NCBI GenBank assembly: GCA_024679065.1
Contig: JAGIQG010000040.1
Span: forward strand, 3,906,001 to 3,970,000
Length of the DNA stretch: 64,000 bases
Source: Sphyrna mokarran
Taxonomy: Eukaryota
Direction of reading: 5' to 3'
Shown here: positions 3,259-26,578 of the stretch, one piece after another
How positions within the stretch are numbered: position 1 is the stretch's first letter
Layout: each line of letters begins with the position of its first letter
The notes under the pieces: generated by a model
Seen by the model: the letters and a program-made list of their open reading frames with translations, nothing else
Database searches by the model: none
What the model was told of the DNA's origin: nothing
Position numbers and translations under genes: made by a program

Positions 3259-3758
3259 ATGTTTCTGCTCGCACTGGCGGTCCTCTTGCACAGTAAGTAC
3301 TGGAAAACGTTCATCAAGCCAGATAAACATATTAATACGCATAGATGACAACTTAATTAACAATCTGAAACATCTATGTGAGGCATAGAATGGAGGTTCC
3401 TCAAACTATTGCAGGTATAAACACATTTACATTAACTCTTGACATTTCATTCCTCTACCTTCACAAGCGGACTGTGCGCAGATCGAGTAACTCAGTCACC
3501 AGTGACAATAACGCATCAGAAGGAGGTTCGGTGCAGTTAGATTGCAACTATACAGACCTGGGTATGGACTACAAGCAATCGTATCAGCAGTAACCGGCAC
3601 AGCCACCAACATGGATTATTTCCAAAATATTAACAGTGAAGGAAGATAAAGGTTCAGGACGGTATCAGGCGGCTGCTGACATATCTAAATAGGACGGTTA
3701 CCTCAATATCAGCGCCCTCGGGGTGGAGAACGGGGCGGTCTATTGCTGTGCAATGAAG
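3259..3758 (+). pseudogene. TCR alpha/delta-type V pseudogene (V1)
   Basis: Leader exon 3259-3292 MFLLALAVLLH then gtaagt. V exon ~3468-3758 reads DRVTQSPVTI / SEGGSVQLDCNY...SYQQ*PAQPPTWII...GYLNISALGVENGAVYCCAMK, with a frameshift, two stops and loss of the conserved Trp. Confidence 0.85.
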
Positions 3759-3797
3759 CACCGCGTCAGATTGCAATTAAAAGCCCGTTAAAAAGCT
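3759..3797 (+). other. Degenerate 23-type RSS of V1
   Basis: CACCGCG + 22-23 nt + (T)TAAAAAGC(T) directly after the V end. Confidence 0.55.
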
Positions 3798-4254
3798 CAG
3801 CCAGTATTGACAGTTTCACTAAATTAACTTCTGCCAGAACCGTTTGTTCCCGCGTTCAAGAATGCAGTCAGGTCTATTTACCCGGCATTTTGTCCTAATG
3901 GGCAGAGAAGCGCTTTTGGAAGTCGAGACACTAATCTCCATGCTGTGATTAATGTACATAATTTAAAAATCAGCTAAAGGATGAAATCAGAAGTGGAGTC
4001 AGTGTGGCGGAAAATTGTAAGCTGTTCTTTCAGAATAGTTAACTGAAACAAGCCCACGGACACCGACTCTTCAGCACTAGTTCTTGCAACGAAATGCAGA
4101 ACGGATCAAAATCTGCCGTCGTACTTAACAAATGAGATGTACAATAACTGTCACACAAAATCACTCAGCAATATGAATATTATTATAAATCTGGGACACA
4201 GAGGCTTATCCAACAACACGAATATTGTCGATTCTCACAGCTGACACTGGTGTA

Positions 4255-4960
4255 TTATGTGGTGGTGAGCTCCCTTCTTGAAGTGCTGCGCTCTCTGGGG
4301 TGCGCGTACACCGACTGTGCTGTTAGTGAAGGATTCCAGGGTGTTGACCCAGTGACCATGAAGGAACAGCGAGATATTTCCAAGTAAGGATGTGAAATAA
4401 ATTGGAAGGTGACCTCTAGGTTGTAGGATTCCCTACAACCTAGGTCGTGTATACGGATTGGGCACCCTAAAAATCCTTGTATCTTGTAGATAGTGCACAC
4501 GGCTGCCATGGTTTGTCGCTGGTGACAGGGATGGATGTTTATTGAATGGGTAAAAATCATGCGGACTACTCTATCTTGCAACTTGTCGAGCTTATTGAGT
4601 GTTGCTGGAGCTACACTGATCCAAGCAAGTAAGGAGCATTCCATTTAGTCTGCTGTACCTTGTAGATGGTGGGTATGTCTTTGGGAAGTCACGAGGCGAG
4701 TTAGTCGCCACAGGGTTCCTAACCTTTGACCTGCACTGGGAGCTACTGTATTGCTCGGTGCTGTTCTGTTTCCGGTCAACTGCCAGGATGTTGATAGAGT
4801 GGGGGTGGCGGACAGGAAGTGGGGGGGGGAGCTGCAAAGGAAAGTTCGTTAGATCCTCTTTTATTGGAGATAATCATTGCCTGGAAATTGTATGACCTAA
4901 ACGTTGCTTGTACTTGTCAGTCCAAACCTGAGTATTGTCGAGGTCTTACTGTATTTGGGC
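4255..4960 (-). mobile_element. Degenerate L2/CR1-group LINE fragment
   Basis: MECSLLAWISVAPATLNKLDKLQDRVVRMI...AAVCTIYKI; same family as the 610-1590 element. Confidence 0.65.
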
Positions 4961-5229
4961 ACAGATCAGGCGCCTGATTCGAAACAGTGGAATATCATCC
5001 TTAAAATAAAGAATGCGGATGATTTCCTCACCATAAAGCCCACACTCGCTGAGCGACTGTTTCTTCAATCGGATAAGTTATGTCTGAGAAAAGCAAAATC
5101 GCTGTCAGGAATTGCAAAGTCGTCCAGGGCAACCCCGCTCACATACTTCATTTCTTGCTCTAGTTCTGGGACGTATTGCCTGCAATGTGATGTCTGTAGG
5201 ATTGTTGCAGCAACTGAAAACAGGCGTGA

Positions 5230-5268
5230 GGTTTTTGTACGGTGACTAGCGCCTTCTCTCTCAGTGTG
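5230..5268 (-). other. 23-RSS of V2
   Basis: CACACTG + 23 nt + ACAAAAACC (consensus nonamer). Confidence 0.92.
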
Positions 5269-5682
5269 GGCTCTATCGCACAGTAATACAGAGCAGCATC
5301 CGCGATCTCCGTGTTTTCAATAACCAACTGGCCCCGTTTTCCCGCAGTGGAGAATTCCATTTCGAACCGGCCCTTTCTGTCTTTGCCATTCGAGATTCTG
5401 CTTATTATCCACTCCAGTCCCTGTCCGTGTTTTTGCCTGTACCAATACATTCCATAAATGCTGGACATATCATAACTGCAGTTTATCTGCACCGAATCCC
5501 CGCTCTGAACTGTTTTCACTGTGGGAGTTTGTGAAACTTGGTCCGAGCGACATCGATCTGTATAAAAAAAACATACAGTGAGATAATGCAGCAAAATTAA
5601 TATAAATAAATAGCTCCAAAAGTTCTGGAATAAATATTCTGCGCTTACAAGTTAGCACCACCAGAATAAGGAACAGTTTCAT
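5269..5682 (-). CDS. Intact TCR alpha/delta-type V gene segment (V2); leader exon 5649-5682, V exon 5269-5557
   Basis: Leader MKLFLILVVLT, phase-1 GT-AG intron, open V exon DQVSQTP...GDSVQINCSY...MYWYRQKHGQGLEWII...DAALYYCAIEP with Cys23, Trp41 and Cys104, followed by a 23-RSS. Confidence 0.92.
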
Positions 5683-6190
5683 TTGCACAATGTGATATAA
5701 TAACAATGTCAGTAAGAATACGGAGCACTGCTCACAGCAGAAGACCCTGTACTGAGTCAATATTTTGCAAATGTAAGATGCACCAGATAAAGTTTCAGAC
5801 CTTTGGGTTTTCTACAATCTGTTTGGCTGGAATCAGACTCCGTTCTTCCGGTGTCAGGATGTGAGTTGTTGATCTGCAGCTGCTTTTCTTTCAGAACACG
5901 TGTGAACAAGTCAATTGTCAAAAAACCAGAACACTGCGTAATTTATAAAAGTGGTTAAAGCTTAACTTCACCAACGAAGGCATTGATTTTGAAATGAGGA
6001 TTACCCTCATTTTAAAGTTATGTATGATAAATGCATGTTTGGAAATAATTTTTGTCTATTTACATTTGCAAATATAATTGATTCCCCTTCTGTTTCAGTC
6101 ACATTTTCTCTATCCCTGAGGCACTCCACATTCTATTTCTATTTGTCATGCGGAGCTCTGGCGTTGGACTAAGATAGGCACAGTATGAAT

Positions 6191-6898
6191 TCTCACAACA
6201 CCAGGTTAATGTCCATCAGTAGTTATTTGGTACTACGAGCTTTCGGACCGTTGACCCTTCATTACGTGAGTGAAGAGTTCGATTCACAAACAGGACATAT
6301 ATAGGCACAAACTCAGTAACAAGATAATGGTTGGAATGCGAGTTTTAACAGGTAATCAAGTCTTTACAGGCACAGACAAATTGAGTGGAGAGAGAGTTAA
6401 GCACAGGTTAAGGAGATGTGAATTGTTCCCAGCCAGGACAGTTCGACAGATGTTACAAGCCCAGGCAAGTCGTGGAGGTTACAGATAGTATGACATGAAC
6501 TCAGGGTCCCGGTTGCAGCCGCCCTCTTGTGAGCAGAGACTGATAGCCAAATTTCGCGCATAAGAGGACGGCCGCAACCGGGATCCTGATTTCATGTCAC
6601 ACAATCTGTAACCTCCATGATTTGCCTGGGCTTGTAAGATTTGACAAACTGCCCTTGCTGGGAACAATTCACATCTCCTTAATCTGTGCTTAACCCTCCC
6701 TGCACTCATATTGTCCGCATCTATGAAGACTTGATTACTTGTTAAGATTCCAATTCCAACTACTATCCTGTAATTGGGTTTGTGCCTATGCATGCCCTGT
6801 ATGTGAAGCGAACTCTTCACTCGCCTGATGAAGGGGCAACTCTCCGAAAGCTCATGCTACCTAGTAAACCTATTGGACTTCAACCCGGTGTTGTGAGA
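6191..6898. mobile_element. Penelope-like non-autonomous element forming a long inverted repeat
   Basis: Arms 6191-~6530 and ~6560-6898 are reverse complements (ORFs 6270-6488+ and 6479-6820- give homologous peptides). The centre translates as EQRLIAKFRA*EDG..NRD..FMSH, like a GIY-YIG C-terminus; ctgatgaaggggcaactctccgaaagct terminal motif. Confidence 0.7.
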
Positions 6899-6944
6899 TC
6901 ACGTATTATTTCTATTTGTGTAATTCGGACAGCAGCGGGGCAAT

Positions 6945-7160
6945 TCAGCAGCTCGGCGCCAGATTCGAAAGAGCTATTACGGATCCCCTTTTTCTCACAG
7001 TCAATCGCAATATCACCACTTTCAGTCTCCAATGAATTGAAATTGCTCCCGAACCCCTCTCTTCCTTTATGTAACCAATATTTAAGTTATTGATCTCGAT
7101 CTGCTTTGCAAGCCTCCTTTCATAATCCCTTTTACTAGGGATTTTCATAATCCCTTCTAC
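6945..7160 (-). mobile_element. Old CR1 ORF2 fragment
   Basis: KRDYERRLAKQI...GYIK resembles CR1 AKRxYEKxLA..IK.NPK.FY.YIK. Confidence 0.55.
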
Positions 7161-7944
7161 TTACACATCGCTTCATAGACATTTGCTAGTTTTTGTATCG
7201 TTGAATTATCGCTCTTGTTGTGTTAGTGTGGGAGCACATATTTGTGACACTAACTGTAACTCTGAGCGTGGGCGTTTATACCCGAGTCCTTATTTCTCTG
7301 CAGCAGTGTGAGGCTCATGGAACAGAAATAGCTGTAGTGGAAATCCAAAGCGTTTTTCTTGTTAATTCTGTAATTTCTATGACTTTAATAAGTGTAGAGG
7401 CAAATGGCTGCATAAAGTCGGGGTTACGCTTTGCTGTTCCCCTCTCCCCCCACACTCCATCCATCCAGCCCCGAATTAGAACACCTTCTATAGAAAATGA
7501 CTGTGCCCTGACTGTACCAGAACACGCAAGGACTTGGATTTTTTGTTTTCAAGATGGGACTTGTGGTGAAATTAATCGACGATCTTCAACCATCATTTCA
7601 GCCATGGACTCCTCTTTTGAGCCTTAATTGTATCATTCTGACATAGGTGATGAATATTTATCACTGCACCAGCATTTTGGTAAACCATAATGTTTCAGGT
7701 ACAGCAGACGGGTTGGTGTGGGGCAGTAAGGAATGTTAATTTTAATGGGAAACATTCACTTAATCTGAAGTGATATAATAGTTAATGTTTTAAGTTATTT
7801 CCATTTGATGTTTCCTCAAACTGTACCTTTGCAGTCTGTTAAATCCTCTGCCAGGGTACAGATATACATCCCTTTCGCATTGGACTGCGGTGTCCAACCA
7901 ATGCCAGAGAAAAGTTGCAAAAATCTCTGCAATAAAACAGGGTA

Positions 7945-8710
7945 CATAGAACATAGAACATAGAACATAGAACAATACAGCACAGAACAGGCCCTTCGGC
8001 CTTCGATGTTGTGCCGACCAAAATAAAAAGCAATGCCCCTCCAAACTAAACCATTCCCTTCTCTTCCATATACTTATCAATTAACCTCTTAAACGCCACC
8101 AAACTTGGCGCATCTACAACAGCTGCAGGCAGGGCATTCCACTCCCTAATCACTCTTTGAGTAAAGAACCTACCTCTGATATCCGTCCTATAACTCATAC
8201 CCCTTAATTTAAAGCTGTGTCCCCTCGTGCTAGCTTTCTCCATCCTAGGAAAAAGGCTATCACTGTCCACCCTATCTAAACCTCTAATCATCTTATATGC
8301 TTCAATAAGATCCCCTCTTAGCCGCCTCCTTTCTAACGAAAACAACCTCAAATCCTTCAACCTCTCTTCATAGGACCTGCCCTCCATACCAGGCAACATC
8401 CTGGTAAACCTCCTCTGTACCCTCTCCAATGCCTCCACATCTTTCTTATAATGTGGGGACCAGAACTGCACACAATACTCCAAGTGCGGCCGCACTAGAG
8501 TTTTGTACAGTTGCAACATGATGCTGCGGCTCCTAAATTCAATCCCCCTACCAATAAAAGCTAAGACTCCATATGCCTTCTTAACAACTTTATCCACTTG
8601 ACTGCCTACTTTCAGGGATCTATTGACACATACACCAAGATCCTTCTGTTCCTCAACACTATTAAGAGCCCTACCATTAGCGCTATACTCTACACATTTA
8701 TGAAGGGTCA
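7945..8710 (-). mobile_element. Young 5'-truncated CR1 LINE
   Basis: Open 221-aa ORF2 C-terminus (LYKTLVRPHLEYCVQFWSP, FSLERRRLRGDLIE), 3' UTR and (TTCTATG)n tail. Confidence 0.95.
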
Positions 8711-9122
8711 AAGCGAGAACAGCACAGGCAAGCTCTTGGCAATGTTGTCACAGGTAGAATTTATCTACAAAGAACTGAACTCAGTAATATGGTATCACTG
8801 GGAAATTATATAACGTTGTCTCTCTTGTAGGAAGGATAGTTTAATCTTCATTCCATTCTGCGGAGCAGTTGGCGCGTAACAACTTAGTTAAAGTTAATAA
8901 GTTATTCAATGCTAAATGAAATCTTTTTCAACCGCCTCACAAAAAAGTTGGCGTTGAATTTCCAGCTTATATATGTTGGGTATCCAGCTGTCTGCACTCA
9001 GAAACCTTTGTCTATGATCAGTGGGATATGGCATTAATGTTTGCGATAAACAGGTACCCCTAGTTAAGAAACATCAAATTGGTGAGAGACAGCTCCGACA
9101 GCTTCTACTGCTAGATGTCCTG

Positions 9123-9137
9123 CAGGAAGTGACGTCA
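9123..9137 (+). promoter_or_regulatory. Ets + CRE composite element upstream of the V3 leader
   Basis: CAGGAAGTGACGTCA about 100 bp 5' of the ATG at 9234; CRE and Ets sites are known in TCR V promoters. Confidence 0.6.
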
Positions 9138-9233
9138 GAAATGTGGCTGCTCTGAGTCTGTGTTGTCCTGCAGCAGACGACATTTGCTCTTTTACTATTC
9201 CCTATTCTGCATCTTTCTGACAGAGCAGCAGCG

Positions 9234-10225
9234 ATGTGGATCCCCATTCTCGCTGTACTCTGGGCAGCTTTCCGTGTCGGCGAGAAATTTAAAACTTCTA
9301 AATGAAGGTTAATTTCAGAGAATTGGATTTGAAAAGTAAATAGTCTATTTAACACGTATTGAAACGTGTTCCGACCACATGAGGAGTGTTAGGAAAAGAT
9401 GTAAGGGCACAGGAGTAAATGAGAAAAAATCTTTACGAAGGTGATGCCGCAATTGACATGAAACAGTTATCAGAAATCATTGTGCTGGCTGAGGTTATTT
9501 GACCTCGCAAAATGACAGCCTGACAGAGGTCTTCAAAATGAGATTGAAATGTGATTAATAGGTGAGTGCTTCAGAGTTGTTTTTACTTCTGGATCATTGA
9601 ATATAATAAATGCAATGTTTCAAATGGATGAAAAGGGCATTGTGGACAAGCCTCCCTACACAGCGTGTGTTGATAATCTGTACATCATTAGCACAGGGGA
9701 AGCCAAATATAGAGATGATGGAGAAAGAAATGGATAAAAATTCTGAGTTGGTAAGATGGAGTCAGGCGAATTAGGCCTGATTTAATACCGACAGAGATCA
9801 ATTTTGCAGCAAGTTTTTTTTTCAAAGGCCTGAATTCCATTTTTTTCAATGTAATGCTGACTCCTAATTGTCACTTTCGGTTAAATTCAGTTGATTATTT
9901 CCTTTTTTTAACCATGTATTTCAGATCGTAGAGATGGAGATTCTGTTACTCAGCAGGATTCCTCACTCACACTACCAGAGGAGAAATATGTCACTTTAAG
10001 CTGCAACTTTACTGACAATACTGATTATGCATTCTGGTACCGTCAGTACCCAGGCAGACAACCCGAGTTTGTAGTCCGCAGGGACACTGGCGGCAGTTCT
10101 GAATTCAGAACAGATTTCGCTCAGAATCGGTTTTCTGATGAGTCCAACAGCCAGACAAGTTGTACCGATTGTCAATCGCGGAGCTGTGGCATGCTGACAC
10201 CGCGGTCTATTATCGTGCAGTGTCT
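9234..10225 (+). pseudogene. TCR alpha/delta-type V pseudogene (V3); leader ~9234-9279, V exon 9925-10225
   Basis: Leader MWIPILAVLWAAFRV. V exon GDSVTQQDSSLTLPEEKYVTLSCNFT...AFWYRQYPGRQPEFVV...RFSDE, then a 1-nt frameshift, then QQPDKLYRLSIAELWHADTAVYYRAV (Cys104 to Arg). Confidence 0.88.
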
Positions 10226-10264
10226 CGCAGTGATGCGAACGAGTTTAGTCCTCGCACAAAAACG
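10226..10264 (+). other. 23-RSS of V3 with a mutated heptamer
   Basis: CGCAGTG + 23 nt + ACAAAAACG; the essential CAC is broken. Confidence 0.85.
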
Positions 10265-11329
10265 GCCACAGGTTTCCGGGTCACAGCCCCTTTTTCTAAG
10301 GGCTGTTTATAACACCGGCACATCAATATTTTCCTGCACACAGACATCCCAAGATCAATTTGCAGAAATCCCACCAGAAACTGTGGGATTTTACATTGTT
10401 ATTATATTTACTGCGTGGTTGCAACATTAGCTGCCCACCATTAACAACACAAATTCCTGCTGCTTTCTTGAAACGAGCTCTGTCGATGCAGTGAAATGTG
10501 TTAAAGGAAAGTGACATTCGGTTTAAAATATCATCGCAACGGAGACGGTTACGTCAAATGAAAATGTTGACAATTAAATGAAACGTGTTAATCGTCGTTC
10601 AATGTGAAATTACATGGAAGTATGAAGCAAACATTGCGCTGAGATGCCAGCAGATTCTGAGGTTTTGCTGCCACCTTGTGGGAGAGTTCAGAATTTCTCC
10701 CCGTAATGTTCACTTCAGTTCAGATTATTGTTCAAGAATTATTTTTGCAAGAAATTCAAAAGACTACACCAAAGCTATCCTGTCATTAATTATTGCGTTA
10801 TTCGATATAAGTGCTGTTTTGAACTTTATCTCTATAATACTTTTTTTTTGCTATTGTAACGTTAAATTATGTTTCATGTGTTAGTTTATTAGATAATCTC
10901 TTTGTTTTGATTACATAAGGCCATGCCTTGGCTAACAACTGTCCAGACCATGCCTCTTCTCACAGGGCACAAACTAGTGTCTCAGCTATCACTACACTGA
11001 GCCCATATGTCTGTCCTAACTTCACTGGATCGGTGCCTGTTTATATTACACGAAGGCTGTTCCCTTCCTTTATTTGGCTTGTAAACCATCGGAAACGCTG
11101 CCGGTTGTTACTGATCTCAGATCATATCCATGTCTACGTTGAAAATTTTACAAGATTGTGTCAATTCTCTACGAGAGTTGGGATTGTGTCCGAAATGCCT
11201 TTGATGTAAATGGAATAGCGGAAATCTTCCCCAACTCTGTTAACCTCGGCTTGGAATTTATTGATATTTATTTGAAACCACTACATTCTGCTGATAGATT
11301 AGAAAGATAAGGGCCCCTCAGCTTCCTGT

Positions 11330-11580
11330 CACGGTGCATCACAGTCCGCAGACATACATCGCGCTGTCAGTCAGCTCACGGATAGTGAAATTCTCCCCTT
11401 TTTTTCAAGTATTTAAAGATGAAGGAAATCGAATTCCCATACCCTTTGCTCTGAAAACTTCCACAACATTCTCACGGCAATGACTAGAAAGTAGCAGTGG
11501 TGGAATAGCTGAAATTGATGATACAGAGTCGCTGTAATCGGCCCCTGCGTGACCAAGCCTGCAGCAGGAATATCTGTCCT
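11330..11580 (-). pseudogene. Highly degenerate TCR V relic (V4)
   Basis: Minus strand gives GLVTQGP..., INFSYSTT, GIRFPSSLNT*KK, NFTIRELTDSAMYVCGL followed by heptamer CACCGTG (11330-11336); internal deletions. Confidence 0.65.
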
Positions 11581-12472: not shown

Positions 12473-12511
12473 GGTTTTTGTACGGACTGACTGTGTCTCT
12501 GTAACACTGTG
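12473..12511 (-). other. 23-RSS of V5 (perfect consensus)
   Basis: CACAGTG + 23 nt + ACAAAAACC. Confidence 0.95.
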
Positions 12512-12947
12512 GTGTTCAGCGCGCAGTGATAGACGGCAGAGTCAGAGATATGGACTCCGGTGATAGTTAAAGGAACTGTTCTGTTGCCTTTGTCCAATTC
12601 AGCCGAAAACCGGTCAGGAAAATCTAGAGATCTATCCATCTGTTTCTTGCCGTAACTCTTCAGTAAATATCTGGGAGCTTTCCCGGCATATTGAATGTAC
12701 CAGAAGAGAGTCTCGCCAGTGTATTTTGTTGTGTAATTGCAATTCAATATTACCGTCTGTCCTTCATCAGCCGTGAATTCAGGGAGGTCCTGGAAAACTG
12801 AATCTTGGCCATTGGTTCCTGTAACAACAGAGAGAATGTGTGAGAAATCTGACTGAATATAACCGATGAAACACACGCTGAAGATTTGAGCTCAGACTTA
12901 CCCGGCAGAGTGATTATTACTATCAGTAAAGCACACAGGGAACACAT
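12512..12947 (-). CDS. Intact TCR alpha/delta-type V gene segment (V5); leader exon 12902-12947, V exon 12512-12818
   Basis: Leader MCSLCALLIVIITLP, phase-1 GT-AG intron, open V exon GQDSVFQD...EGQTVILNCNY...LFWYIQYAGKAPRYLL...DRFSAELDKGNRTVPLTI...DSAVYHCALN, consensus RSS. Confidence 0.93.
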
Positions 12948-13809: not shown

Positions 13810-13848
13810 AGATTTTGTATGATGCCCACAGGAGCCTTATTCACTGTG
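13810..13848 (-). other. 23-RSS of V6
   Basis: CACAGTG + 23 nt + ACAAAATCT. Confidence 0.85.
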
Positions 13849-14133
13849 GGTCTCTGTGCACAGTAATACACGGCGCTGTCTATCACCTTCAAATCTTTCA
13901 TGGACAAGGTTGTTTCAAGTTGAGATTGCCACTGAAGTGTTCAAAGCTGGAAGCCGCATCTGTAAACCCATAACTAACTGAGTAGATACTGAGGAGCTCA
14001 GTGTGGATACTGGCGATACCAGAACAGGCGATGTTGTGTACCTGAACTCGATGCAGAGTAACTGCATCGTATTGTTGAATCCTCACCCTCTACTGTTTCA
14101 ACAATTGGTTCTGACTGGGATAATGAGTTTCTG
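13849..14133 (-). pseudogene. TCR alpha/delta-type V pseudogene (V6), 5' end disrupted by CR1
   Basis: NSLSQSEPIVETVEGEDSTIRCSYS...LFWYRQYPH*APQYLLS...TTLSMKDLKVIDSAVYYCAQRP, with stops and frameshifts. Confidence 0.88.
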
Positions 14134-14134
14134 T

Positions 14135-16668
14135 TACTCATCTCATGGCCCAAAAGTTAACGTTCTAACTTGGGGCAAGGTGGATTTTGATGGTATCAAG
14201 CAGGAACTTTAAAAAGTTAATTGGGGGAGTCTGTGGGATAGCAAAGGGACGTCTGGTAAATGGGAGGCTTTCAAAAGTGTGTTAACTAGGGTTCAGGGAT
14301 ATTATCACATGCCTCTTACAGTGAAGGGCAAGGCTGGTAGACGTAGAGAACTCTGGATGACTCGGGATATTGAGGCTCTGGTCAAGAAGAAGATGAAAGG
14401 GGCACACGACATGCATAGTCGGCTGGGATCAAATGAATCCTTGAAGACTATAGGGGTTGTAGGAGTAGAGTTAAGACAGAAATCTGGAGGGCAAAAAGGA
14501 GACACGACATTATTTTGGCAGAAAAGACAAAGGAGAATCCAAAGACCGTCTACAAATACATAAAAGGCAAAAGAGTAACTAGGGAGAGAGAGAGACCTCT
14601 GAAGGATCAGCAATGTCATCTATGTGCCGATCCACAGGGATGGCTGAGATTCTAAATGAATATTTCTCATCAATATTTATTGTTGACAAAAGCATGAACG
14701 TTAGTGAATTTGGGGAAATAAATAGTGATGTCTTGGGGAGTGTACACGTTACAGAGAAAGAGATGCTGGAAATCTTAAAGCGCATCAAGATAGATAAATC
14801 GCCGGACTTGATGGAGTGTATCCCAGACATTGTGGGGAGGCTAGGGAGGAAATTGCGGATCCTTTAGCAGAGATATTTGAATCATCGATGGTCAAGGATG
14901 GGGTGCCTGAAGATGGGAGAGTGGCAAATGTTGCGTCTTTGTTTAAATTGGGTGTCGTATGTAAAAGACACCTCTGAGACCAGTTATGAATGAAGGTATA
15001 GCAAGTTTATTCAAAAGCTTTTGGGAGACACTCCTGGTACCTAACAGCCGTCCCCCAGGCTTCTCTCTGAATACAAATTAAGAGCCCATATTTATAACCC
15101 CCCCCCCCCACATTTCGCCCCCCCCCCCACGCCCCCAGCCACGTACGCATCTTCTCATTCTCAGGAGGTTTCCAGGCTGTGGCATGACCTTCATCGTGGG
15201 AATATGGTTGCCACGGTATTTCTTTGTGATTATCTCAAGGCTGCAATTATCGGTGGTGTGATTGGCACTTAGCTAACATACAGGCCGGCAAAACAACTTA
15301 AAGTTAACGGGGCAGGTATAACAATTTTGTGTTCATAGATTGTATAGCATGTAATATATATGATATGTTGGTACGTGACAAATGAGCAATACATAACGAA
15401 TATATATGATTATATTTATGAATATATATTTATGGCATGCAAGTTTCATTATGTTAGGCACAAGTCCATAATATTAAAGACACAAACATAGAAACGAGCT
15501 GGGTCAGCTACATTTCTGAACGGACTATCATTAACTTGTGTACAACAGCAAGGACAGCTGTAGTCTTATTGTCTAGGACATACGAAAACAAGTCTTACAT
15601 CTGTCTGGGATACATGAAAACGTTCGAAAACAAGTCTTACAATACTTTTCTACCAATCTTCAAGTATTACAAAGTTCATTAATCCATTCCCTACTGCATG
15701 TACATTAATGATTTGGATGAGAATATAGGAGACATGAATACTAAGTTTGCAGATGACACCAAGATTTGTGGGGTCGTGGACAATGAAGAAAGTTACCTCC
15801 GATTTCAACGGGGTCTTGATCAATTGGACCAGTGAGCTGAAAAATGATAGTTGGAGTTTAATTTAGGCAAAAGCGAGGTGATGCATTTTGGTAGGTTGAA
15901 CGAAGGCAGGATTTACTCAGTTAATGGTAGGAAGTTGGGGAAAGTTACAGAACAAAAGATCGAGGATTACATGGTTATACCTCCTTGAAAGTGGAGCAAT
16001 AAGTAGACAGAGTGGTGAAAAAGGTATCTGCATGCTTGGTTTCATTGGTCAGAACATTGAGTACAGGAGTTGGGGCGGTTTGTTGAAATTGTACAAGACA
16101 TTGGTAATCCACACTTGGAATACTTTGTAAAGTTCTGGTCACCGTATTATAGAAATGATATCATTAAATCAAAAAGAGTGCAGAAAAGCTTTTCTAGGAT
16201 CCGACCGGGACATGGTTGTCTGAGTTCTAAGGAGAGGCTGGATAGACTGGGATTTTTTTTCTCTGGAGCGTAGGAGGCTGAGGGGTGACCTTACGGAGGT
16301 CTATAACATAATGCGGGGCACAAATCAGTTAGATAGTCACTATATTTTCCCAAAGATAGGGAAATCTAAAACCAAAGGGCACAGGTTTAAGGTGAGAGTG
16401 GAGAGATACAGAAGTTCCAAAGGGGCAATTTTTTTTCACACAGAGGGTGCTGAGTATCTGGAACAAATTGCCAGAGGAAGTAATAGTGGCGGATACAATT
16501 TTGTCTTTTAGAAAGCTTTTACTTAGTTACATGGTAAGATGGGTATAGAGGAATATGGGCCAAATGCGGGCAATTGGGATTAGCTCGGAGTTTAAACAAA
16601 AAAGCGGCATGGACAAGTTGGGCCGAAGGGCCTGTTTCCATGCTATAAATCTTTATGACTCTATGATT
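14135..16668 (+). mobile_element. Degenerate CR1 LINE interrupted by an insert at 14953-15698
   Basis: ORF2 pieces (LTWGKVDFDGIKQEL, MAEILNEYFSSIF, YINDLDE..KFADDTK, HLEYFVKFWSPYY) and a 3' tail ending tatgactctatgattc. Confidence 0.9.
14953..15698 (-). mobile_element. Possible solo LTR nested in the CR1
   Basis: ~745-bp non-CR1 insert with TG...CA ends; on the minus strand a TATA-like TTATAAATA (~15089-15097) precedes AATAAA (15006-15011). No target-site duplication seen. Confidence 0.45.
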
Positions 16669-17149
16669 CGATCTCTGAAAATAAATAGCGGACACAAAAC
16701 GGTTTAAAAGGAGTAACAACAACAGAATATATGCCTCGAGATGGAAATATGAAATTAATATGGTGATTGATGGATTTCACCAAAGGTTCAAAATGACCGA
16801 GCTGTGATCTGGACAATAATCAGGGTCAGATAGAATTTCACCCCTACGGTTTCAGTTGAACATCAGAAACAGAGACGGTGATCACTGATTGTACCAGAAC
16901 TGCAATTGGAGATGTTGAAACAGTCAGTGGAATGGTATGAGGTCGAACATGACTCCCTGTCTCCGCCCGTTTTTATATCTTCAAACAGGCACTTCCTCAG
17001 AAGGAGATGGTGATCTGGCATAAGTGAGCAGAGAGCGCCCTCTCCTGGACAGCACTGCCGTATATTGGAAACAGGAACACACGCGGCCACTTGCAAAGGC
17101 TGACACATATCGAAATATTAGAATCATAGAATCCGTACAGGACAGAACA

Positions 17150-19128
17150 CCAAAGTTAATTTGCTGGTTAAAAGGAAAAAGGAGGCTTATGTCAGGATGA
17201 GGCTTGAAGGCTCACTTAGTGCAATGGATACCTGTAGATTAGCCAGGAGGGAGCTAAAGAGAGAGTTGAGGAGAGCTAAAAGGGGACACGAGAAGACTTT
17301 GGCTGATAGGATCAAGGAGAATCCTAAAGCTTTCTTTAGATATGTTAAGAATAGAAGATTGGTTAGGGCAAGATTAGGGGCAGTCAGAGACAGCAGTGGG
17401 AAGTTGTGCGTGGAGCCTGAAGAGATTGGAGAGGCACTGAACAAATATTTCTCTTCGGTATTCACGCAGGGAGATGTAAATGTAATTGTGGAGAACACTA
17501 GGATACAGGGTTGCAAACTGGAAAGTATTGAAGTAGATAAGGAGGATGTGCTAGATATTCTTGAGGGTTTGAAGTTAGATAAGTGCCCTGGGCCGGACGG
17601 GATTTACCCTAGGATTCTCTGGGAGGCAAGAGAGGAGATTACAGAGCCTCTGGCTCTGATCTTCAGGTCCTCGTTGGTTACGGGTGTGGTTCCGGAGGAC
17701 TGGAGGATAGCGAATGTGGTCCCATTGTTTAAGAAGGGGAAGAGAGACCTTCCAGGGAATTATAGGCCAGTGAGTCGTACTTCTGTTGTGGGCAAAGTAT
17801 TGGAGAGAATTATTAGGGATAGGATTTATAGTTATTTAGAGAGAAATGAATTGATTGGGGATAGTCAGCATGGTTTGTGAAGGGTAGGTCGTGCCTTACT
17901 AACCTTATTGAGTTTTTTGAAAAAGTGACCAAAGAGGTGGATGGGGGTAAGGCGGTTGATGTGGTATATATGGACTTTAGTAAGGCGTTCGATAAGGTGT
18001 CCCATGGAAGGGTTCTGCAGAAAATGCAGATGTATGGGATAGAGGGTGATTTAGCTAATTGGGTTAGGAATTGGCTAGCAGATAGAAGACAGAGGGTGGT
18101 GGTTGATGGGAGATATTAATCGTGGAGTTCGGTGACAAGTGGTGTACCTCAGGGGTCTGTTTTGGGGCCCCTGCTGTTTGTAATTTTATAAATGATCTGG
18201 ATGAGGGTATTGAAGGATGGATTAGTAAATTTGCAGATGACACTAAAGTCGGTGGAGTGGTAGATAGTGAAGAGGGGTGTTATAGTTTGCAGAGGGACTT
18301 GGACAAGTTGCAGAGCTGGGCCGAGAGGTGGCAAATGGAGTTTAATGTGGAGAAGTGTGAGGTAATGCACTATGGCAGAAATAATAAATGTGTAGAGTAT
18401 AGGGCTAATGGTAGGATTCTTAATAGTGTTGATGAAAAGAGGGATCTTGGTGTATTTGTGCATAGATCCCTGAAAGTAGGCAGTCAAGTCGATAAGGTTG
18501 TTAAGAAGGCATATGGAGTCTTAGCTTTTATTGGTAGGGGGATTGATTTTCGGAGCCGCAACGTCATGTTGCAACTGTACAAAACTCTAGTGCGGCCGCA
18601 CTTGGAGTATTGTGTGCAGTTCTGGTCCCCGCATTATAGAAAGATGTGGAGGCATTGGAGAGGGTACAGAGGAGGTTTACCAGGATGTTGCCTGGTATGG
18701 AGGACAGGTCTTATGAAGAGAGGCTGAGGGATTTGAGGTTGTTTTTGTTAGAAAGAAGGCGGCTAAGAGGAGACCTTATTGAAACATATAAGATGATTAG
18801 AGGTTTAGATAGGGTGGACAGTGATAGCCTTTTTCCTAGGATGGAGAAAGCTAGCACGAGGGAACATAGCTTTAAATTAAGGGGTGGTAGTTATAGGACA
18901 GATGTCAGAGGTAGGTTCTTTACCCAGAGGGTGGTAAGGGTATGGAATGCCCTGCCTGCTACAGTTGTAGATGCGCCAAGTTTGGTGGCGTTTAAGAAGT
19001 TAGTAGATAAGTTTATGGATGAAAAGGGAATGGTTTAGGTTAGAGGGTCATTGCTTTTTCCTAATTGGTCGGCGCAACATCGAAGGCCGAAGGGCCTGTT
19101 CTGCGCTGTAATGTTCTATGTTCTATGT
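17150..19128 (+). mobile_element. Young 5'-truncated CR1 LINE (RT domain with a few frameshifts)
   Basis: ORFs 17161-19038 give PGPDGIYPRIL, NYRPVS, YMDFSKAFDKV, KFADDTK and FWSPHY, then a (TTCTATG)n tail. Confidence 0.95.
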
Positions 19129-19134
19129 TGTTTT

Positions 19135-19345
19135 CAGCCCAGCAAGTCTGTACTGGCCACAAGGTCACACAGGCCGTATTCCCGTAACTCCATATATTTA
19201 CCCCGCTAATCCCCCTGACAGGAGGGTCAATTTAGCATGGCCAATCAACCGAACCTGCACATCTTTACATCGTAGATGAAACCAGAGCACCTGAGGAAAC
19301 CCAGCGTACACCGGGAGGGCAAATAACACACGGTCACGTGCAAAG
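19135..19345 (-). mobile_element. HE1/V-SINE-type fragment
   Basis: Minus strand ...gtgtacgctgggtttcctcaggtgctctggtttc...aaagatgtgcaggttcggttgattggccatgctaaattg, the V-SINE core. Confidence 0.7.
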
Positions 19346-19999
19346 ACTAACACATGTAAGAATATATAACCATTTACATTTATGCCCAAGCACCGATATC
19401 AATTGCAACGATATCTGTTATAAGTACAAAATTATTTCATAGATTTGTATCATACATTAACTTCTACTGTTAACCATGATAATATATGAATAATACCGCC
19501 TCCGTGTTCATTGGAAGCCTGGTATATCTCACAGAATCAACAAAAGCATAGCTACAGGGACAAGGAAACACAGTGATCGATTCTCAAACTGATCGACTCT
19601 AACACAGCCACACATACAATCACTGAGGAAGACGAACAATCAGATTTACACAGCCAAAGACACACTAAAGAAAAGTGCACCTATCGACAATGACGAGAAA
19701 ACATGCTAGTTCCAGAGTAAACTTCCTGAACTGGAATTCCCTGGGGTCGTGTCAGTGCGGCAATATCTTGAGAGATATTCATTGCGATGAAACTGTCCAT
19801 TTTAACAACAAGAACAGCCAGAAATCTATTTCTTACCAACAGTGATCATTAATTGATGACTATAAGCAATTGACGACTATTGGAGAATAAGGAAGAATGG
19901 ATTTCTTTTACAGTCGATCATATTCTCGATGTGTCCGTGTCACATTTAAAGTTGGTTTACTAGTGTCACAAATGGGATTACATTAATATTGCAATGAAA

Positions 20000-20238
20000 T
20001 TATTGTGAAAATCCCCTAGGCACTGCACTCCGCCATCTGTTCGGATACACAAAGGGAGAACTTTAGCATGGCAATCACCTAACCATTGCATCTTTTGTAC
20101 TGGAGGAGAAAACCCAGAACACTCAGGGGGAATCCACGTAGACTCAGGAGTAACATGCAAATTGCACACAGACCCAATCCGGGAATCGAACCCAGGTCCC
20201 TGGCGCTGTGAGGTAGCTCTGTGCCATCGTGCTGCCCG
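20000..20238 (-). mobile_element. HE1/V-SINE-type tRNA-derived SINE
   Basis: Head gggcagcacgatggcacag...cctcacagcgccagggacctgggttcgattcccgg (B box) followed by the V-domain core. Confidence 0.8.
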
Positions 20239-21077
20239 TGTGAGGTCAGTGTAGGTAAGACAGATTCCCCATCTGTTCTTAATGTTATCGGATCAAAGGT
20301 TTGGGATACAAAAGGACAACACAAGGACAACACAAGCTTTAGGTGCAGGTGATTCATTCTCTTCTGTTATATTCCACATTTTGAGGAAGGTTGTGGAGTT
20401 AATTAGTTAGAGCATGTATAATTCAGAAATAATGAAGACATGCTTCATCTGATTAAACTTGTTTTGTAAATTTGTGATCTGTTCAGAGCAGCTATAAATC
20501 TGCTCAATGATAAAGCATCCAGGACTCTCTGGGGTAGTGAATTCCATACTTTCTCAACACTGAGTGAGATAATTTATTCTCATCTCGGTACTAAATGATC
20601 AGCGGCTCCGAGATGATGTCTTCCCTGTAAAACTTCTCAGAATCGTGTAGGTTTCAAAATGGTTGCCTCTCATTCATCTAAACTCAGTGAATAGCACTTC
20701 AAACAGAAATCCTCAGATATTTGGAAGTGTTTCTACTCCTTTCTATGTTTTAATTAAGATCAGAAACATAAATTGTTGAAATATTGCAGGAACTGATAGA
20801 TTTGAATTGACAGGAAAGGCTGAACAGCCTGAAGCTCTTTCTCTGGAAAGAAGTGGGCAGACAGATGACCAGATGGATATGGAAAGGTTTTCCTTTTTTT
20901 AAGGGTTCGAAGTCAACTTTTTCATTCAGCTGTAGATTGACGTCTGCTGAATCCAATCAAGGAAACAAATGTTTGGAAATGTAGAATGAAAGTATCGACA
21001 TTAAGATGTAACAACGTGCTTTCTAGCCAATGAAAGGCATTTATAATTGAAAAATAAAAATGCTAATCCAATACTGG

Positions 21078-21149
21078 AAGTGGCACTAGGACTTGAGCCA
21101 AGGACCACTTGATCTGCAGTCAAATACTCGGTCACTGAACTACGCCCAT
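21078..21149 (-). pseudogene. tRNA-Cys(GCA) pseudogene
   Basis: GGGCGTAGTTCAGTGACCGAGTATTTGACT-GCA-GATCAAGTGGTCCTTGGCTCAAGTCCTAGTGCCAC aligns with vertebrate tRNA-Cys; the B box and acceptor stem are mutated. Confidence 0.75.
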
Positions 21150-22049
21150 GCACGCATCCTCTCACCCCCGCCCTCGGCCCTTCCAAGCTATGAATCTCCG
21201 TGAAAGATACACCCATGATCTTATTCAGTGGGTGAAGAGGCTCGAGGTGATGTCTCAATCCAGCTTTGTCTCACAGCTACTGGTTTCTGACCCAAGTCGC
21301 AGAACTTTGGGCTCAATTCAATGAGAAGTTTTTCTTAATGATTGGGCTTGGATTTGGATCCGGATCTAAGAGACATTTATGTCAGTCTAAAGGCTAAAAT
21401 CAATCCCATTACCACCCAGATTTTAAAAATTCAAACATCATGTACATTTAAAAGTCGACGAAAACAAAAATAAAGTTTTCACATGCGTCAGAGCAGTTAT
21501 TTATGTTTTTTTTTTGCTTCATTGACTTTCCACAGCAGCCAAGTTTCGATATTGTACAAAACAGGGTGTGATCAATATTTTGTGCTCCGTAATGTTAAAA
21601 AGAAACAATTGTTTCTTCTAGATTAATGGTTCGGTCCATAGACATACCGAAATAATTTATTTGTAAACGGAAACTGTATAAACTAAAATCCTCAGATATT
21701 AGGAACTGGTGCTACTCCTTTCAAGTTCTCGCAAGAAACAGAAAGCTGCTTCACGAACTGATATTTGTAATCATCAGGGAAGGGTGAAAAGCCCGAAGAT
21801 ATTTCCGAAGGAATCTACCAGGCTGTGAATGCTGTAGATGGCGAGGAAGGCAATCTGGAAGATTCTTGTAATCGCATCCGATGGAATCCAGCTATTTTCC
21901 ACGCCTCTGTTCACGATATCATTATAGGGGATGAACCTTGAACACTCCACATGAAAATGAAACCCCGTGTCACCCTGCAACTTGTGTTTTAATAGCCTGT
22001 GACTTCGCCAATGTCGGTTTGTTTCACTGAACTTTTGATTGTTGTGTTG

Positions 22050-22900
22050 TTCCTTGGATACACTGTTGTCGAATTACTCAAGGCTACCTCACACTTTTAC
22101 GAGTTAAGTTTCACCTGCCACGTATATATCAATTTGATCATTTCATCTATATCTTCTTATAACCTAAGACACTCAAATCCACTGTTGACAAACGCTCAAT
22201 CATTTGTGCTATCAGCAAACTTACAAATCCTATCCCGCACATTCATTTCTGTCGTTCATAGAAAAGATGTGTGATAGGCAAGAACATATCTCTTTGGTAC
22301 GCCAGTGGACACTGACTTCCAGTCATTAATAACAGCCTTCTCTCACTACACTACATCTCCTGCAACTGAGCCACTTTTGAATGCACTTAATCAAATTACT
22401 CTTTATACCATGTGCATATGCCTTTAAAAACGTGTTGCAACTTCCGAAAGCTTTTCTTAAATAATATGAACTACACAAACTTCACTACCTTCATCTGCAC
22501 ACCTTGTCACGTCCTCAAAAAAAATCAGATTTGTTAGTCATGATTTTCATCGACGAAGGCATGCTGACTATCCCTGATCAAGCCTTGTCTCTTCAAGTGG
22601 AGACAGATGCACCTCTTCAGAAATTTCTCGAATAATTTCCCGACCACTGACATGAAAATCACTTGTCTATAGTTCTATGGTTAAAGATCACGAGGCTTCT
22701 TAACTAGCAGAACTACATTAGTTGTTTTCGACTTCTCACTGCGGCCAGAGAGGAATTAAACATTTGGGTCAGAGCCCCTGAAATTTCCTCCCTCGCATTT
22801 CACATCGGTTTTCGAAATTTGCCCACTTTTAAGCCTGCCAACGTTTCCAAGAGCTTATCACTCCTTATTTCACTTTGCTCAGTAAAATTACAGTCTCTCT
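22050..22900 (-). mobile_element. Old degenerate CR1 RT fragment
   Basis: Plus-strand gtgctatcagcaaacttacaaatc is antisense of KFADxT; further CR1-like stretches follow. Confidence 0.65.
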
Positions 22901-23696
22901 TCCTGAATTCAAAACTTTGATTATCATTCTCTTAGGTGATAAAAGATGTGCAATATTCATTAAACATGCTACCGACATCCTTCAGCTGCACCTACGGACT
23001 TTTGTACAATCTTGCTGGGATGAAGTTGCAATTAATGACGGCCAATATGCCGGCCTGATCCTTTATGGCAACATATAACTATGCTGAAATGGACGAGATT
23101 TTACTGAAAGTAAACGCACTGAACGGGGCCTGCCCACACTGAATGCAAAAGCACTGAACTGAAAATGCCCAAATCATGTGCAACTTCGAAAATTGATCCG
23201 ATGAAAATAATCTTGACCAGTTTATTTTGAATAACATGAAACTGAAATCGGTAAATATGCAATGGAAGAAGCAATAACGAACTGGTTCTAATGCACTGGA
23301 TCGGTGATCACACAGAGGGAATAATAATCTGGAGCGAGACATTGGCTGGTTTTTACTTTTGGGCCGGAACAGCTCTGTTCAGTTCCATCTGATACTGAAA
23401 CTTCCTCACATGAGAATCATCCCGATGCCATTTTCTATTTCGCCCGTATGCTGTTACAGTTCTCATACTATACTTTCTGAGGATTTTACTTCAGAATTGT
23501 GTCAGCGATCTTGAAAAGTCTTTTTTCCACTTCATCAAAGCATGAAAAATTTTCAAAGTAGGCCCAGTTTCAAGTTGTTTATTTCAATTAATGTAATGAT
23601 TGCAAAAGATCAAGTGAACTCCCTGGAGCCTGGATTGGGTTATATATTGCCAATCTCTAATTGTCGAGCAGAATAAACACACAGCTGCTGACAGAA

Positions 23697-26578
23697 ATGC
23701 ACGGATTACCAAAAGGATTGGTTTTTGTCATTTACTATCCCGTGCTTGCAGTGATCGGGATTCCAGGTGAGCATCTTTCATGAAGTATTCGGTACGGAAA
23801 TCATTGTCAATCGCTGCCATTGCTTTCTGATTTCAGCTTATCGCCGTCCTCGTTCCCTGGAAGTGTTTTTTTTTATCATACTGGCACTCACATCCAGCAT
23901 GAACTGTTCATTTCATTGTGACAACTTTCCTTTTTAATCGTATTTTGCAATATAGTCTTTGCATTTGAAGAAATAAAAATATTCTATTTAATACTCCATT
24001 TCACCAATTTAATTTATGGAAAGGCTGTTGCGACTCAAGTTGTTCCTCAGGGATCAGTGCTGTGACCTTTGCTGTTTGTAATATATGCAAATGATTTGGA
24101 GAATAATATAACTTGTTTGATTCGTATGTATGTGGGCATCACAAAGATTAGTGGAATTGCGATAACAATGATGACTGTCAGGGGATACAACAGGGAATAA
24201 ATCGGTTTGAGACTTTCGCAGAGAGATGGCAGATGGAGTTTAATCTGGATAAATGTGGCGTAATTGATTTTGGAAGGTCTAATACAGATAGAAAATGTAA
24301 AGTACATGGTAGAACCTTTAAGAGTATCGATAGAAAGAGAGATTTGGGTGTAGAGATACACAAGTTACCGAAAATGGAAACGCGGGTAGAGAAGGTAGTC
24401 AAGAGGGCTTGCCTTCATCAGCCGGGGCATTGAGTGTAAAATTCGCAAGTCATATTGCAGTTTTGTAGAACCTTAGTTAGGCTGCACTAGGAATCTAGTG
24501 TCTCTTTCTGGTCGCCACACTGGCAGAGGATTTGGAGATTTGAAGAGGGTCCTTTATTCCTTTCATTTCCTTGCATGATTGCTAGATCTGCTTCTTTTTA
24601 ACGGTGCTATTTCTTTCCTTTATCATAACTTATTCCCATTTCTGGTTTCAGTTTTATACTTTGACAATACATAACGTTTATGTGACCACAAAGTTGGAAA
24701 ATCTTTCCCAGTTACATGAGTCATATCTCATTTTCTGCGCCCTTCTGTTCAGCGATATGATTATTAGAGGGGAAGTGTCGCAATATCACCAAACTGCATA
24801 TGCATTTCTAATGTTTAACTAGCGATGTTATCTTGTATCATCACTCAATTACCATACATGTAATAAATTATAGACACAGCCAGTGCATTATTTTATTTAT
24901 GCTTATTCGCATTGAGTTGGAATATGAACAGTTGAATCTCTTGAATCTGTGTGGCATATCATTTCATAGCTCCTCTGTTTATCGGCTGAGAAAATATATG
25001 CATCCTGCGCGGTGTATAATTATCTCAGTGGTGAAATACGTTTTGAAAACCATGCCGTTTCACTCTGAAGAGATAGACGCCCAATTCATTTACAATTAAT
25101 ATTTCCAATATGTTGGTAGCTTTTCTTGTTTCCGTAAACCACCACTGTTTTGTCTTCTGATCATTACAGTTTAAGAGTTCCTGGTCACGTACCTTTTGTC
25201 CCAAAATGCTTTTGTGCATTCAAGCGTTTTCCAGGACTAGTTCGCATCGAAAGAATTTAGTATCTATTTCCACAAAACATTTTCTGGTGCCTTTCTGCTC
25301 AATTTACATGTCGCTCTATCATTGTGTTTTCCTTCTTTTTCTCCCCAATATTCCAGCTTATATGTGTTCTGCCTCAGTGGATGCGGAAATAATTTATTGT
25401 ATTTCATTTAACTGAGTCACAAAATATGAAGTTACTTGTTTACTATAGGACCGAACCGGTATTCATCCTAGGAGGACAGAGCAGTATTGTGAATTTATTA
25501 AACATTAGCATCCGTTTTCTCCAATGAAAGCGATAGGTCATAAAACTGAAATTTTGGCTCTGCTTTTAGTTTGCATCTGATATCCAATCTGAATTTTTTT
25601 CAAAAATGTTTGTTCAGCATTCCTTTATCACGATTGCATATTCACTAGATATGTTTCCGACTCATAGCTAATCTCGCGGTAATTGTGATCCTGTCACGAG
25701 GAAGATGTGGTCTCTCCGGATGCATCACCTACTACCTGATGTCCATGGCAGTGACAGATCTCCTGGTCATGATCCTGGCGGTGATAGTAAATCGCATTTT
25801 GGGTGTTTATTTTCCATTCAGTTTCCTCTCAATCACTCCAGTCTTTGCTCTCAGTCTTGTGCTGATATATGGTGTTAGAGATTCTTCTGTCTGGTTAACA
25901 GTCGCTTTCACCTTCGATCGATTTATAGCTATTTGTTGCCAAAGGCTAAAAACAAAATACTGCAAAAAAAAAATTTCAGCTTTGGTGATAGGAACTGTCT
26001 GTTTTGTTCACTGTGCTAAAAAAATTCCCTTGTTCTTTGCTTGTGAACCATCCATTATCATTAACAATATTCCCCGATACTGTAAGTTAACATCAGTATT
26101 TTACACCTCATCTGGATGGATCGCATATGATAGCATAAACGCCATTTTAATACCTTGTCTCCCATTTGTCCTGATATTGATGCTTAATGTTCTAACTGTC
26201 AAGCATATTGTTGCAGCCAGTCGAGCCCGCAGAAGACTCCGAGCCCAGAACATTGCAGAGAGTCAGAATGATCCAGAGATGGAGAAAAGGAAAAAGTCCA
26301 TTATTTTACTATTTGCCATCTCAGCTAGTTTCATCCTATTGTATTTGCTTGCTGTTGTAACTTTCCTTTATGTCCGAATTGCGAGCGTTATTTATTTAGA
26401 AGGTTCAAGTTTCAGCAAATCCAATTATATTCTTGAAGAAAGTGGATTAATGCTGCAACTTTTGAGTTCTTGCATAAATCCATTTATTTATGCGGGGACC
26501 CAACGCAAATTTAGAGATGAGTTAAAGAATGGCGTGAAATATCTATTACGTCCTTTTGTTAACTTATTTAACTTATGA
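23697..26578 (+). CDS. GPR139/GPR142-like class A GPCR, paralog 1 (exon 1 23697-23766, exon 2 25668-26578; 326 aa)
   Basis: Exon 1 MHGLPKGLVFVIYYPVLAVIGIP|gtgag and exon 2 tag|ANLAVIVIL join in frame. Motifs: MAVTDLL (TM2), SVWLTVAFTFDRFIAIC (TM3), CINPFIY (TM7). TATA-like ttatata at ~23640; AATAAA at 26583. Confidence 0.9.
24020..24550 (+). mobile_element. CR1 RT fragment in the intron of GPCR paralog 1
   Basis: PQGSVL.PLLFVIY.NDLE and WQMEFNLDKC motifs. Confidence 0.85.

Follow-up and report, generated by a model that had tools for sequence, protein, structure and literature searches.

The window, that is, the whole 64,000-nucleotide stretch of Sphyrna mokarran DNA analysed here, lies in the interior of the 12.3-Mb scaffold C994 (3,906,001-3,970,000) and contains 0 N letters. 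Five V segments belonging to the TCR alpha/delta type are found between positions 3259 and 14132, their characteristic split leader and V-set domain being intact in two of the five. Both intact segments are on the minus strand: one at 5230..5682 (leader 5682-5649, V exon 5557-5269, 23-RSS from 5268), with a V-set domain match of 1e-15, and the other at 12473..12947 (leader 12947-12902, V exon 12818-12512, perfect 23-RSS), for which the top solved-structure matches include TCR alpha chains. The three pseudogenes comprise a plus-strand copy at 3259..3758 (leader 3259-3292, V exon with stops and a frameshift, degenerate RSS), a second plus-strand copy at 9925..10264 (V-like part to 10225) with a frameshift, a lost second cysteine and a changed heptamer, and a minus-strand copy at 13810..14132 with stops and a frameshift but a retained RSS. 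In this last V segment (13849-14132 without its RSS), a LINE fragment occupies the place of the leader directly upstream. The 3' RSS with a 23-bp spacer were located at 5268, 12511 and 13848. A homolog search in the "longer" mode from one V segment returned no match.

As the preliminary description had proposed, this V block adjoins a GPCR cluster, the first GPCR start codon (23697) lying 9,565 bp past the last V segment, and a tblastn search from 14.2 kb to the window end revealed no further V-like sequence. The 9,564-bp interval (14133..23696) is 43% covered by repeats, taken as sequence with at least three matches in the other DNA examined, and harbours a single CTCF-like site (17035-17048, one mismatch); CTCF-like sites, assigned by motif likeness, numbered four against 0.39 expected. 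Three GPR139-like genes follow, each consisting of two coding exons: the first at 23697..26578 on the plus strand (exons 23697-23766 and 25668-26578, open frame of 326 aa), the second at 38593..41674 on the minus strand (exons 41589-41520 and 39509-38593, 328 aa), and the third at 54021..56682, also on the minus strand (exons 56595-56526 and 54940-54021, 329 aa). A frameshifted GPCR 3'-end remnant was additionally identified at 46355..46550 on the minus strand.

Judged by their sequences, the receptors are not odorant receptors, which have a single coding exon, but members of a GPR139-like family; the claim that a non-OR multigene GPCR family stands next to the V segments was thereby borne out. 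All 18 GPCRs compared with Pfam match 7tm_1, and no olfactory receptor family was present among the nine families listed for them at E<=1. Compared with solved structures, the family profile matches GPR139 best (E 7e-16, a distant match), databases name the proteins "probable GPR139", and the Atlas neighbours are FMRFamide-receptor-like. Within the neighbourhood of GPR139/GPR142, TRH, neuromedin-U and FMRFamide/Srw receptors, GPR139 is hence the closest characterised relative by distant sequence match, with the difference that hundreds of divergent copies exist here instead of one gene. The family motif has 427 exact matches genome-wide (control 0). The GPCRs of the window's scaffold form several deep subfamilies mixed with copies from other contigs and other sharks in a quick tree of 55 rows that contains no true GPR139.

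Family members are common outside known immune loci, many clusters having no visible immune neighbour, and 12 of 19 cluster positions on 14 other contigs fall within 12.5% of a contig end (p=5e-4), these positions being hand-picked and read by hand, and the contig ends not being proven telomeres. Members were also encountered near other immune loci: one copy, which carries a stop, is 17 kb away from the main V array of TCR-beta (a check fixed beforehand), and distances of about 250 kb and about 16 kb separate family members from a second TCR-beta C and an MHC class I-type exon, respectively. No family motif match was found on the IgL contig C772, and for three other C1-set clusters (C335, C838 and C446) the nearest matches lie 3-13 Mb away in a listing that is complete to C849.

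The switch-on signals of these GPCRs resemble those of smell-receptor genes, as far as motif likeness can tell. The family promoters carry TAATT joined to an O/E-like core (a homeodomain plus EBF-like motif) and a TATA element. In the window, the composite stands at -85 and -87 of the second and third genes, respectively, and the first gene has the O/E-like core at -77 without an adjoining TAATT. The EBF-like core is present upstream of seven of nine training genes, with a conserved forkhead-like TGTTT. The strict pattern, which was designed on these nine paralogs, occurs in five of them and in 4/10 held-out first exons compared with 6/1280 background windows, 10 of the 20 fetched genes having no detectable first exon. 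The same motif recurs on C971, C749 and C805, contigs without a visible immune neighbour. Mouse OR enhancers carry an Lhx2/Ebf composite, as described in an excerpt of PMC5608512.

At the scale of the scaffold, the window belongs to the inner part of the antigen-receptor complex known from sharks, and the proposal that it captures the distal V boundary has to be abandoned. An open V segment with a 23-RSS lies at C994:3,989,608, 19.6 kb beyond the right window end with no gap between, and 16 V-like matches were found in the 340 kb to the right. Among the 100 listed of 131 perfect 23-RSS genome-wide, at least 69 are on this scaffold, which the listing covers up to 6.03 Mb: seven left of the window, one inside and 61 to the right. 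The 844 kb mapped hold 54 V-like and 22 GPCR loci with 18 V/GPCR switches, and the adjacency is locally ordinary because eight of the 22 GPCR loci have a V within 10 kb, the window's gap being the longest of the eight. Further afield, GPCRs alternate with V, NAR-TCR and IgM clusters across about 9 Mb, and zinc-finger arrays are mixed in just as densely. The V block of the window and the block at 3.36-3.40 Mb are paralogs in opposite orientation (69-76% nucleotide identity), and one 981,130-bp offset is common to the GPCRs at 5,248,254 and 6,229,384 and to five V pairs, although this 981-kb duplication may instead be an uncollapsed haplotype.

A delta cassette lies gap-free 37-55 kb left of the window (D 3,851,818; J 3,860,612 and 3,861,428; C 3,868,712; TM 3,872,490), the C-delta exon being 37 kb upstream. 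The J-alpha/C-alpha part lies 0.41-0.49 Mb to the right across two short N gaps (4,052,325 and 4,099,039), with about 107 J-alpha at 4,384,290-4,455,355 (108 with one stray at 4.545 Mb) and, 0.41 Mb from the window, a C exon at 4.3795 Mb, which was found by motif and carries the CLxTDxF signature given for C-alpha (PMC10322711). Against solved structures this C-alpha candidate gave weak Ig C matches only, and a genome search with Pfam DUF1968 (TCR alpha C) found nothing. The window V segments are in cis linkage with delta or alpha D/J/C elements, hence not orphons, in agreement with the original expectation. They lie 3' of both a C-delta and C-alpha, contrary to the distal placement that had been supposed, and the flanking marker DAD1 has its best matches on C1326 and none on C994. 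The canonical layout 5'-TRDC-(TRAJ)n-TRAC-3' (PMC10322711) is not seen: the 118 kb upstream of J-alpha, which are free of gaps and hold zinc fingers instead, contain no C-delta, and the closest same-strand C-delta is 0.91 Mb away. A single 0.58-Mb inversion parting C-delta from J-alpha was considered and rejected, given that zinc-finger arrays surround J-alpha/C-alpha on either side and that C-delta is multi-copy; the presumed inversion ends displayed neither a signal joint nor unique homology.

NAR-TCR/TCR-delta models and GPCRs share a record in four other sharks, the call resting on the same species and the same record length, which does not show interleaving. These are Heterodontus (59,489,666 bp, with 52 of the 73 GPCR matches listed), Rhincodon (11,734,621 bp, 11 of 16 matches), Chiloscyllium (15,332,846 bp, accessions 36 apart) and Mustelus (20,430,395 bp). 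Together with the N-free window, this linkage argues against an assembly join and agrees with the suggestion that relatives share the arrangement. As in the elasmobranch AgRC (Flajnik et al. 2025, PMC12227049), IgH clusters are linked here to TCR alpha/delta, with TCR-type V exons and NAR-TCR V between them over many Mb; GPCRs are unmentioned in the main text or two supplementary files of that description. In its stingray and catshark tables C-delta adjoins C-alpha, whereas here J-alpha/C-alpha sit in a zinc-finger array and C-delta has multiple copies. In mammals, according to the portion of PMC2275272 available, TRAV1 and OR loci are intermingled at the 5' end of TRA/TRD, so that multigene class A GPCRs likewise stand beside and between TCR V segments. 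The shark receptors differ in being non-OR, having two coding exons and occurring throughout the complex, including 3' of C genes, with DAD1 elsewhere. The supposed echo of the mammalian arrangement therefore survives in a broad sense, given the members beside TCR-beta and MHC and the OR-like promoter motif, but not as a distal boundary.

The mosaic map, the paralogous V blocks, the duplicated V and GPCR stretches and the same-record linkage therefore favour, with a probability of roughly 65%, a complex of alternating V blocks, NAR-TCR, IgM, delta D-J-C, zinc fingers and GPCRs in which the GPCRs are likely long-standing passengers. The old linkage would have been kept via co-duplication, the GPCRs being copied and inverted along with immune segments, and the mixing would stem from segmental duplication in a duplication-prone domain common to many tandem families rather than from an enhancer that serves both. 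Transcription of the GPCRs would depend on promoters of their own with homeodomain, EBF-like and TATA elements, probably in sensory neurons. Going by strand orientation, the two intact V segments, which are on the minus strand and 42-50 kb 3' of the C-delta on the plus strand, would reach the D-delta of that cassette through an inversional join, as mammalian TRDV3 does; with the minus-strand J-alpha/C-alpha no productive join would be possible.

The neighbours at two TCR-beta loci and MHC are, nevertheless, more repetition than simple hitch-hiking needs, and selection might account for a linkage that spans three shark orders. It is conceivable, if doubtful, that several hundred GPR139-like genes with Lhx2/EBF-type promoters constitute an undescribed chemosensory family kept by selection in the places of mammalian ORs, at TCR alpha/delta-IgH, TCR-beta and MHC. 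The reason would be that both kinds of array depend on silencing by default and on the choice of one gene per cell, and the arrangement would converge on the OR-TCR/MHC layout of mammals, though with receptors of an unrelated family. The position beside these immune loci, the OR-like promoters, the TRAV1 parallel and the four-shark linkage speak for such a pairing; the IgL contig and C1-set clusters, the many GPCR clusters without immune neighbours and the equally dense zinc-finger arrays speak against it, as does the description of catshark olfactory neurons as microvillous V2R cells in the accessible part of PMC10116579.

It appears rather improbable that the immune locus switches the GPCRs on in B or T cells. 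Their position among IgM clusters and V segments and the EBF-like and TGTTT sites would suit B cells, EBF1 and FOXO1 being B-cell factors, rather than T cells, and the suggested T-cell co-regulation gains no support from a motif that points to homeodomain/EBF factors. The same motif, however, recurs on contigs without a visible immune neighbour, rearrangement would delete or invert any genes lying between V and D/J, and a homeodomain site is not known as a hallmark of lymphocytes. A literal distal TRA/TRD edge, to which the lack of V past 14.1 kb within the window might point, or an assembly-join artefact is very improbable in the face of the resumed V array, the gap-free sequence and the linkage in other sharks.

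The shark TCR alpha/delta region emerges as a mosaic of about 10 Mb, its gaps filled by an overlooked receptor family, instead of an orderly translocon edged by GPCRs. The size of that family sits badly with the "relative paucity" of GPCRs published for cartilaginous fishes, as worded in a section of PMC8455134, and with the very small olfactory repertoires of sharks given in the excerpted PMC10116579. The promoter motif makes olfactory expression of the family directly testable.

Elsewhere in the genome, C1027 was considered as a further TCR V array and rejected, since it holds a V-C1 family and RSS were not found in the two stretches examined. On the TCR alpha/delta scaffold, C-delta is present in ten or more copies, six of them within NAR-TCR miniclusters. 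These units repeat the order [V-D-J-V-(J)-C], each with a delta-type C of its own and a V-D that appears to be joined in the germline. The supporting V is apparently joined to D alone and retains a 23-RSS of the D type that faces one J. Repeated units, a private delta-type C and a supporting V that is already joined are likewise features of marsupial and monotreme TCR-mu (PMC7615758) and shark NAR-TCR, the differences being the D-only join with its retained RSS and the location here. If true, the miniclusters would represent an antibody-style cluster layout with a germline RAG join in a shark TCR locus, paralleling marsupial TCR-mu.

Five TCR alpha/delta-type V segments lie in the window, all within 3259-14132; two are intact, with a split leader and a 23-bp recombination signal (RSS), and three are pseudogenes, including the last, which carries stops and a frameshift and has a LINE directly 5′. 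Downstream of this V block follow three open class A GPCR genes of two exons each (326-329 aa, mutual identity 60-67%) and one remnant. The preliminary description had placed the last V less than 10 kb from the first GPCR start codon, and this is borne out, the ATG being 9,565 bp away across an interval that is 43% repeat. Four CTCF-like motifs occur in the window (2381-2394, 10668-10681, 17035-17048 and 34115-34128; 0.39 expected by shuffling), one of them inside this interval. Young LINE copies (17122-19035, 59177-63267 and others) are frequent; they match further copies elsewhere in the region at 91-98% identity and could act as seeds for its duplications and inversions.

The proposal that the window forms the distal boundary of a TCR alpha/delta locus fares differently. 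The window occupies G000:C994:3,906,001-3,970,000, C994 being a scaffold of 12,332,008 bp in the Sphyrna mokarran assembly (G000), of which 3.30-3.50 and 3.666-4.573 Mb were examined in full. To its left, without a gap, the plus strand carries a TCR-delta cassette made up of a VH-like V, a D, two J segments, a C exon at 3,868,712 and a transmembrane (TM) exon. To its right, V segments restart at 3,989,608, and beyond this point come a NAR-TCR unit, IgM clusters and further V segments and GPCRs. At 4.38-4.455 Mb the minus strand carries about 107 J-alpha segments together with C-alpha, separated from the window by two short N gaps. Most V segments of the scaffold are found at 4.9-6.3 Mb. Scoring of 844 kb gave 54 V-like and 22 GPCR loci with 18 switches between the two types, a V being within 10 kb for 8 of the 22 GPCRs. 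Among the 129 of 2457 candidates that were scored, GPCR matches span 2.58-11.97 Mb of C994; Ig C exons, for which 150 of 490 candidates were scored, span 0.6-10.9 Mb. The adjacency is real and the boundary wrong: the V-GPCR neighbourhood belongs to a known complex, in variant form.

The layout of C994 agrees with the antigen-receptor complex as set out by Flajnik et al. 2025 (PMC12227049), where the text consulted, term searches and table S1 gave no mention of GPCRs; term searches of PMC10751288 and PMC10322711 gave none either. No description of this GPCR family, or of GPCRs in a shark TCR region, was found in the literature searched, where prior mention is possible. The canonical TRDC-TRAJ-TRAC order is broken here, J-alpha/C-alpha (4.19-4.57 Mb region) being embedded in C2H2 zinc-finger arrays. 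Two conventional delta cassettes (3.83-3.87 and 5.36-5.39 Mb) were seen, neither adjoining J-alpha. At C994:4,461,981 a solitary near-perfect 12-RSS precedes the first J-alpha by 6.6 kb; it has no FGxG and could be a pseudo-J or the remnant of a D. Immediately 5′ of the delta cassette, at 3.676-3.826 Mb, near-identical GPCRs form a tandem run of recent origin, every one of them on the minus strand, and right after the 3′ end of five of them perfect heptamers recur with a 22-bp spacer and a near-nonamer.

The GPCR family is shark-wide under the database name "probable GPR139" (1840 clusters at E<=0.001, of which 120 were listed), and one strict motif is matched exactly 427 times in the genome, pseudogenes and possible haplotype copies included, vs 0 for the control. 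Each of the 18 aligned members matches 7tm_1, whereas an olfactory family was matched by none; the best solved structure is GPR139 (E 7e-16), and the Atlas neighbours are FMRFamide-receptor-like. Five of nine training genes have, 72-114 bp upstream of the ATG, a homeodomain-type TAATT beside an O/E-like (EBF-type) site, with a TATA-like box after it. Four of the five matches to this pattern in 444 kb fall at GPCR promoters, and 220 kb without GPCRs gave no match. Among 20 held-out genes fetched, the first exon was undetectable in 10; the pattern occurs in 4/10 held-out first exons vs 6/1280 background windows. By sequence it appears to resemble the Lhx2/Ebf composite found in mouse OR enhancers (PMC5608512). 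The motif would offer a testable sensory hypothesis for the family.

With a probability of roughly 0.65, we regard the GPCRs as old residents of a duplication-prone domain, within which they would have been copied along with V blocks and Ig clusters, because the block at C994 3.36-3.40 Mb has an inverted paralogue in the V block of the window and V and GPCR recur at a single 981,130-bp offset. A quick tree places several old GPCR subfamilies on C994, intermixed with other contigs and species. That the GPCRs were instead kept as a selected, OR-like partnership with immune arrays seems unlikely; family GPCRs occur on many contigs where no immune neighbour was seen. Expression of the GPCRs in lymphocytes, with which the activity of EBF in B cells too would fit, is slightly less probable again. 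Judging from their orientation, the two intact V segments of the window would reach the neighbouring D-delta through inversional rearrangement, and no productive join of theirs to J-alpha would be expected.

Linkage at the level of the sequence record extends to related species, NAR-TCR or TCR-delta models and family GPCRs sharing species and record length in four other sharks (Heterodontus, Rhincodon, Chiloscyllium and Mustelus). Catshark family GPCRs are on a record of 133.84 Mb, which would fit the chromosome 17 coordinates of table S1 in PMC12227049 and may be that chromosome. In S. mokarran, the main TCR-beta V array has a family GPCR 17 kb away on one side and none within 130 kb on the other, and further members are near a second TCR-beta C and next to an MHC class I-type exon. 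In mammals, TRB and MHC likewise have ORs at their flanks. The two TCR-beta constant loci are on different scaffolds (C949 12.5-12.85 Mb; C738 57.9 Mb), with a family GPCR near each. One scaffold (C1548 81-111 Mb) combines an array of IgL clusters with MHC exons of class I and class II type, and also has a large cluster of GPCRs and a multi-C Ig-like gene; on the IgL contig C772 no match to the family motif was found. Family GPCR clusters tend towards contig ends. At C1027 0.45-2.85 Mb, a large V and C1 gene family with adjacent exons has a GPCR cluster beside it, and no RSS was found in the two stretches read.

Thirteen C-delta exon matches were found in the genome, ten of them on C994, where one more TM exon, at 12.20 Mb, points to an eleventh. 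The exons are open and 88-100% identical, one pair being identical, and the TM exon was located for nine of the ten. Six lie in 15-19-kb units ordered V(NAR)-D-J-supporting V-J-C. These NAR-TCR miniclusters, each having a J and a C-delta of its own, are at G000:C994 10.43-10.53 and 11.98-12.33 Mb. In 6/6 units, the supporting V terminates no more than 2 nt from the usual end and is followed by 7 nt and then the D-delta 3′ RSS and flank, whereas a V-type RSS is kept in three other supporting V segments; we therefore infer a probable germline V-D join. The units are collinear with conventional delta cassettes down to C-delta at 69-83% (three of six aligned). Their single J reads FSSG, not FGxG, which counts against function.

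One review describes shark TCR loci as translocons (PMC6795676), a second gives TCR-mu as the only TCR with a germline-joined V (PMC7615758), and a germline-joined TRD V-J has been reported in a newt (PMC12698447). Six miniclusters with an apparent germline V-D join are a notable finding; multi-copy C-delta was not found described in the literature searched, prior mention being possible. Eight models with distinct C-delta sequences occur in Mustelus asterias, and C-delta is absent in nine of the ten NAR-TCR models examined in other sharks and a sawfish, which weakly suggests that the NAR-TCR/C-delta units are lineage-restricted. An unjoined supporting V (C994:10,976,539-10,979,177) stands merely 2 kb from C-delta, beside which no J was found, and the C exon there recurs on the small contigs C47, C180 and C1271.
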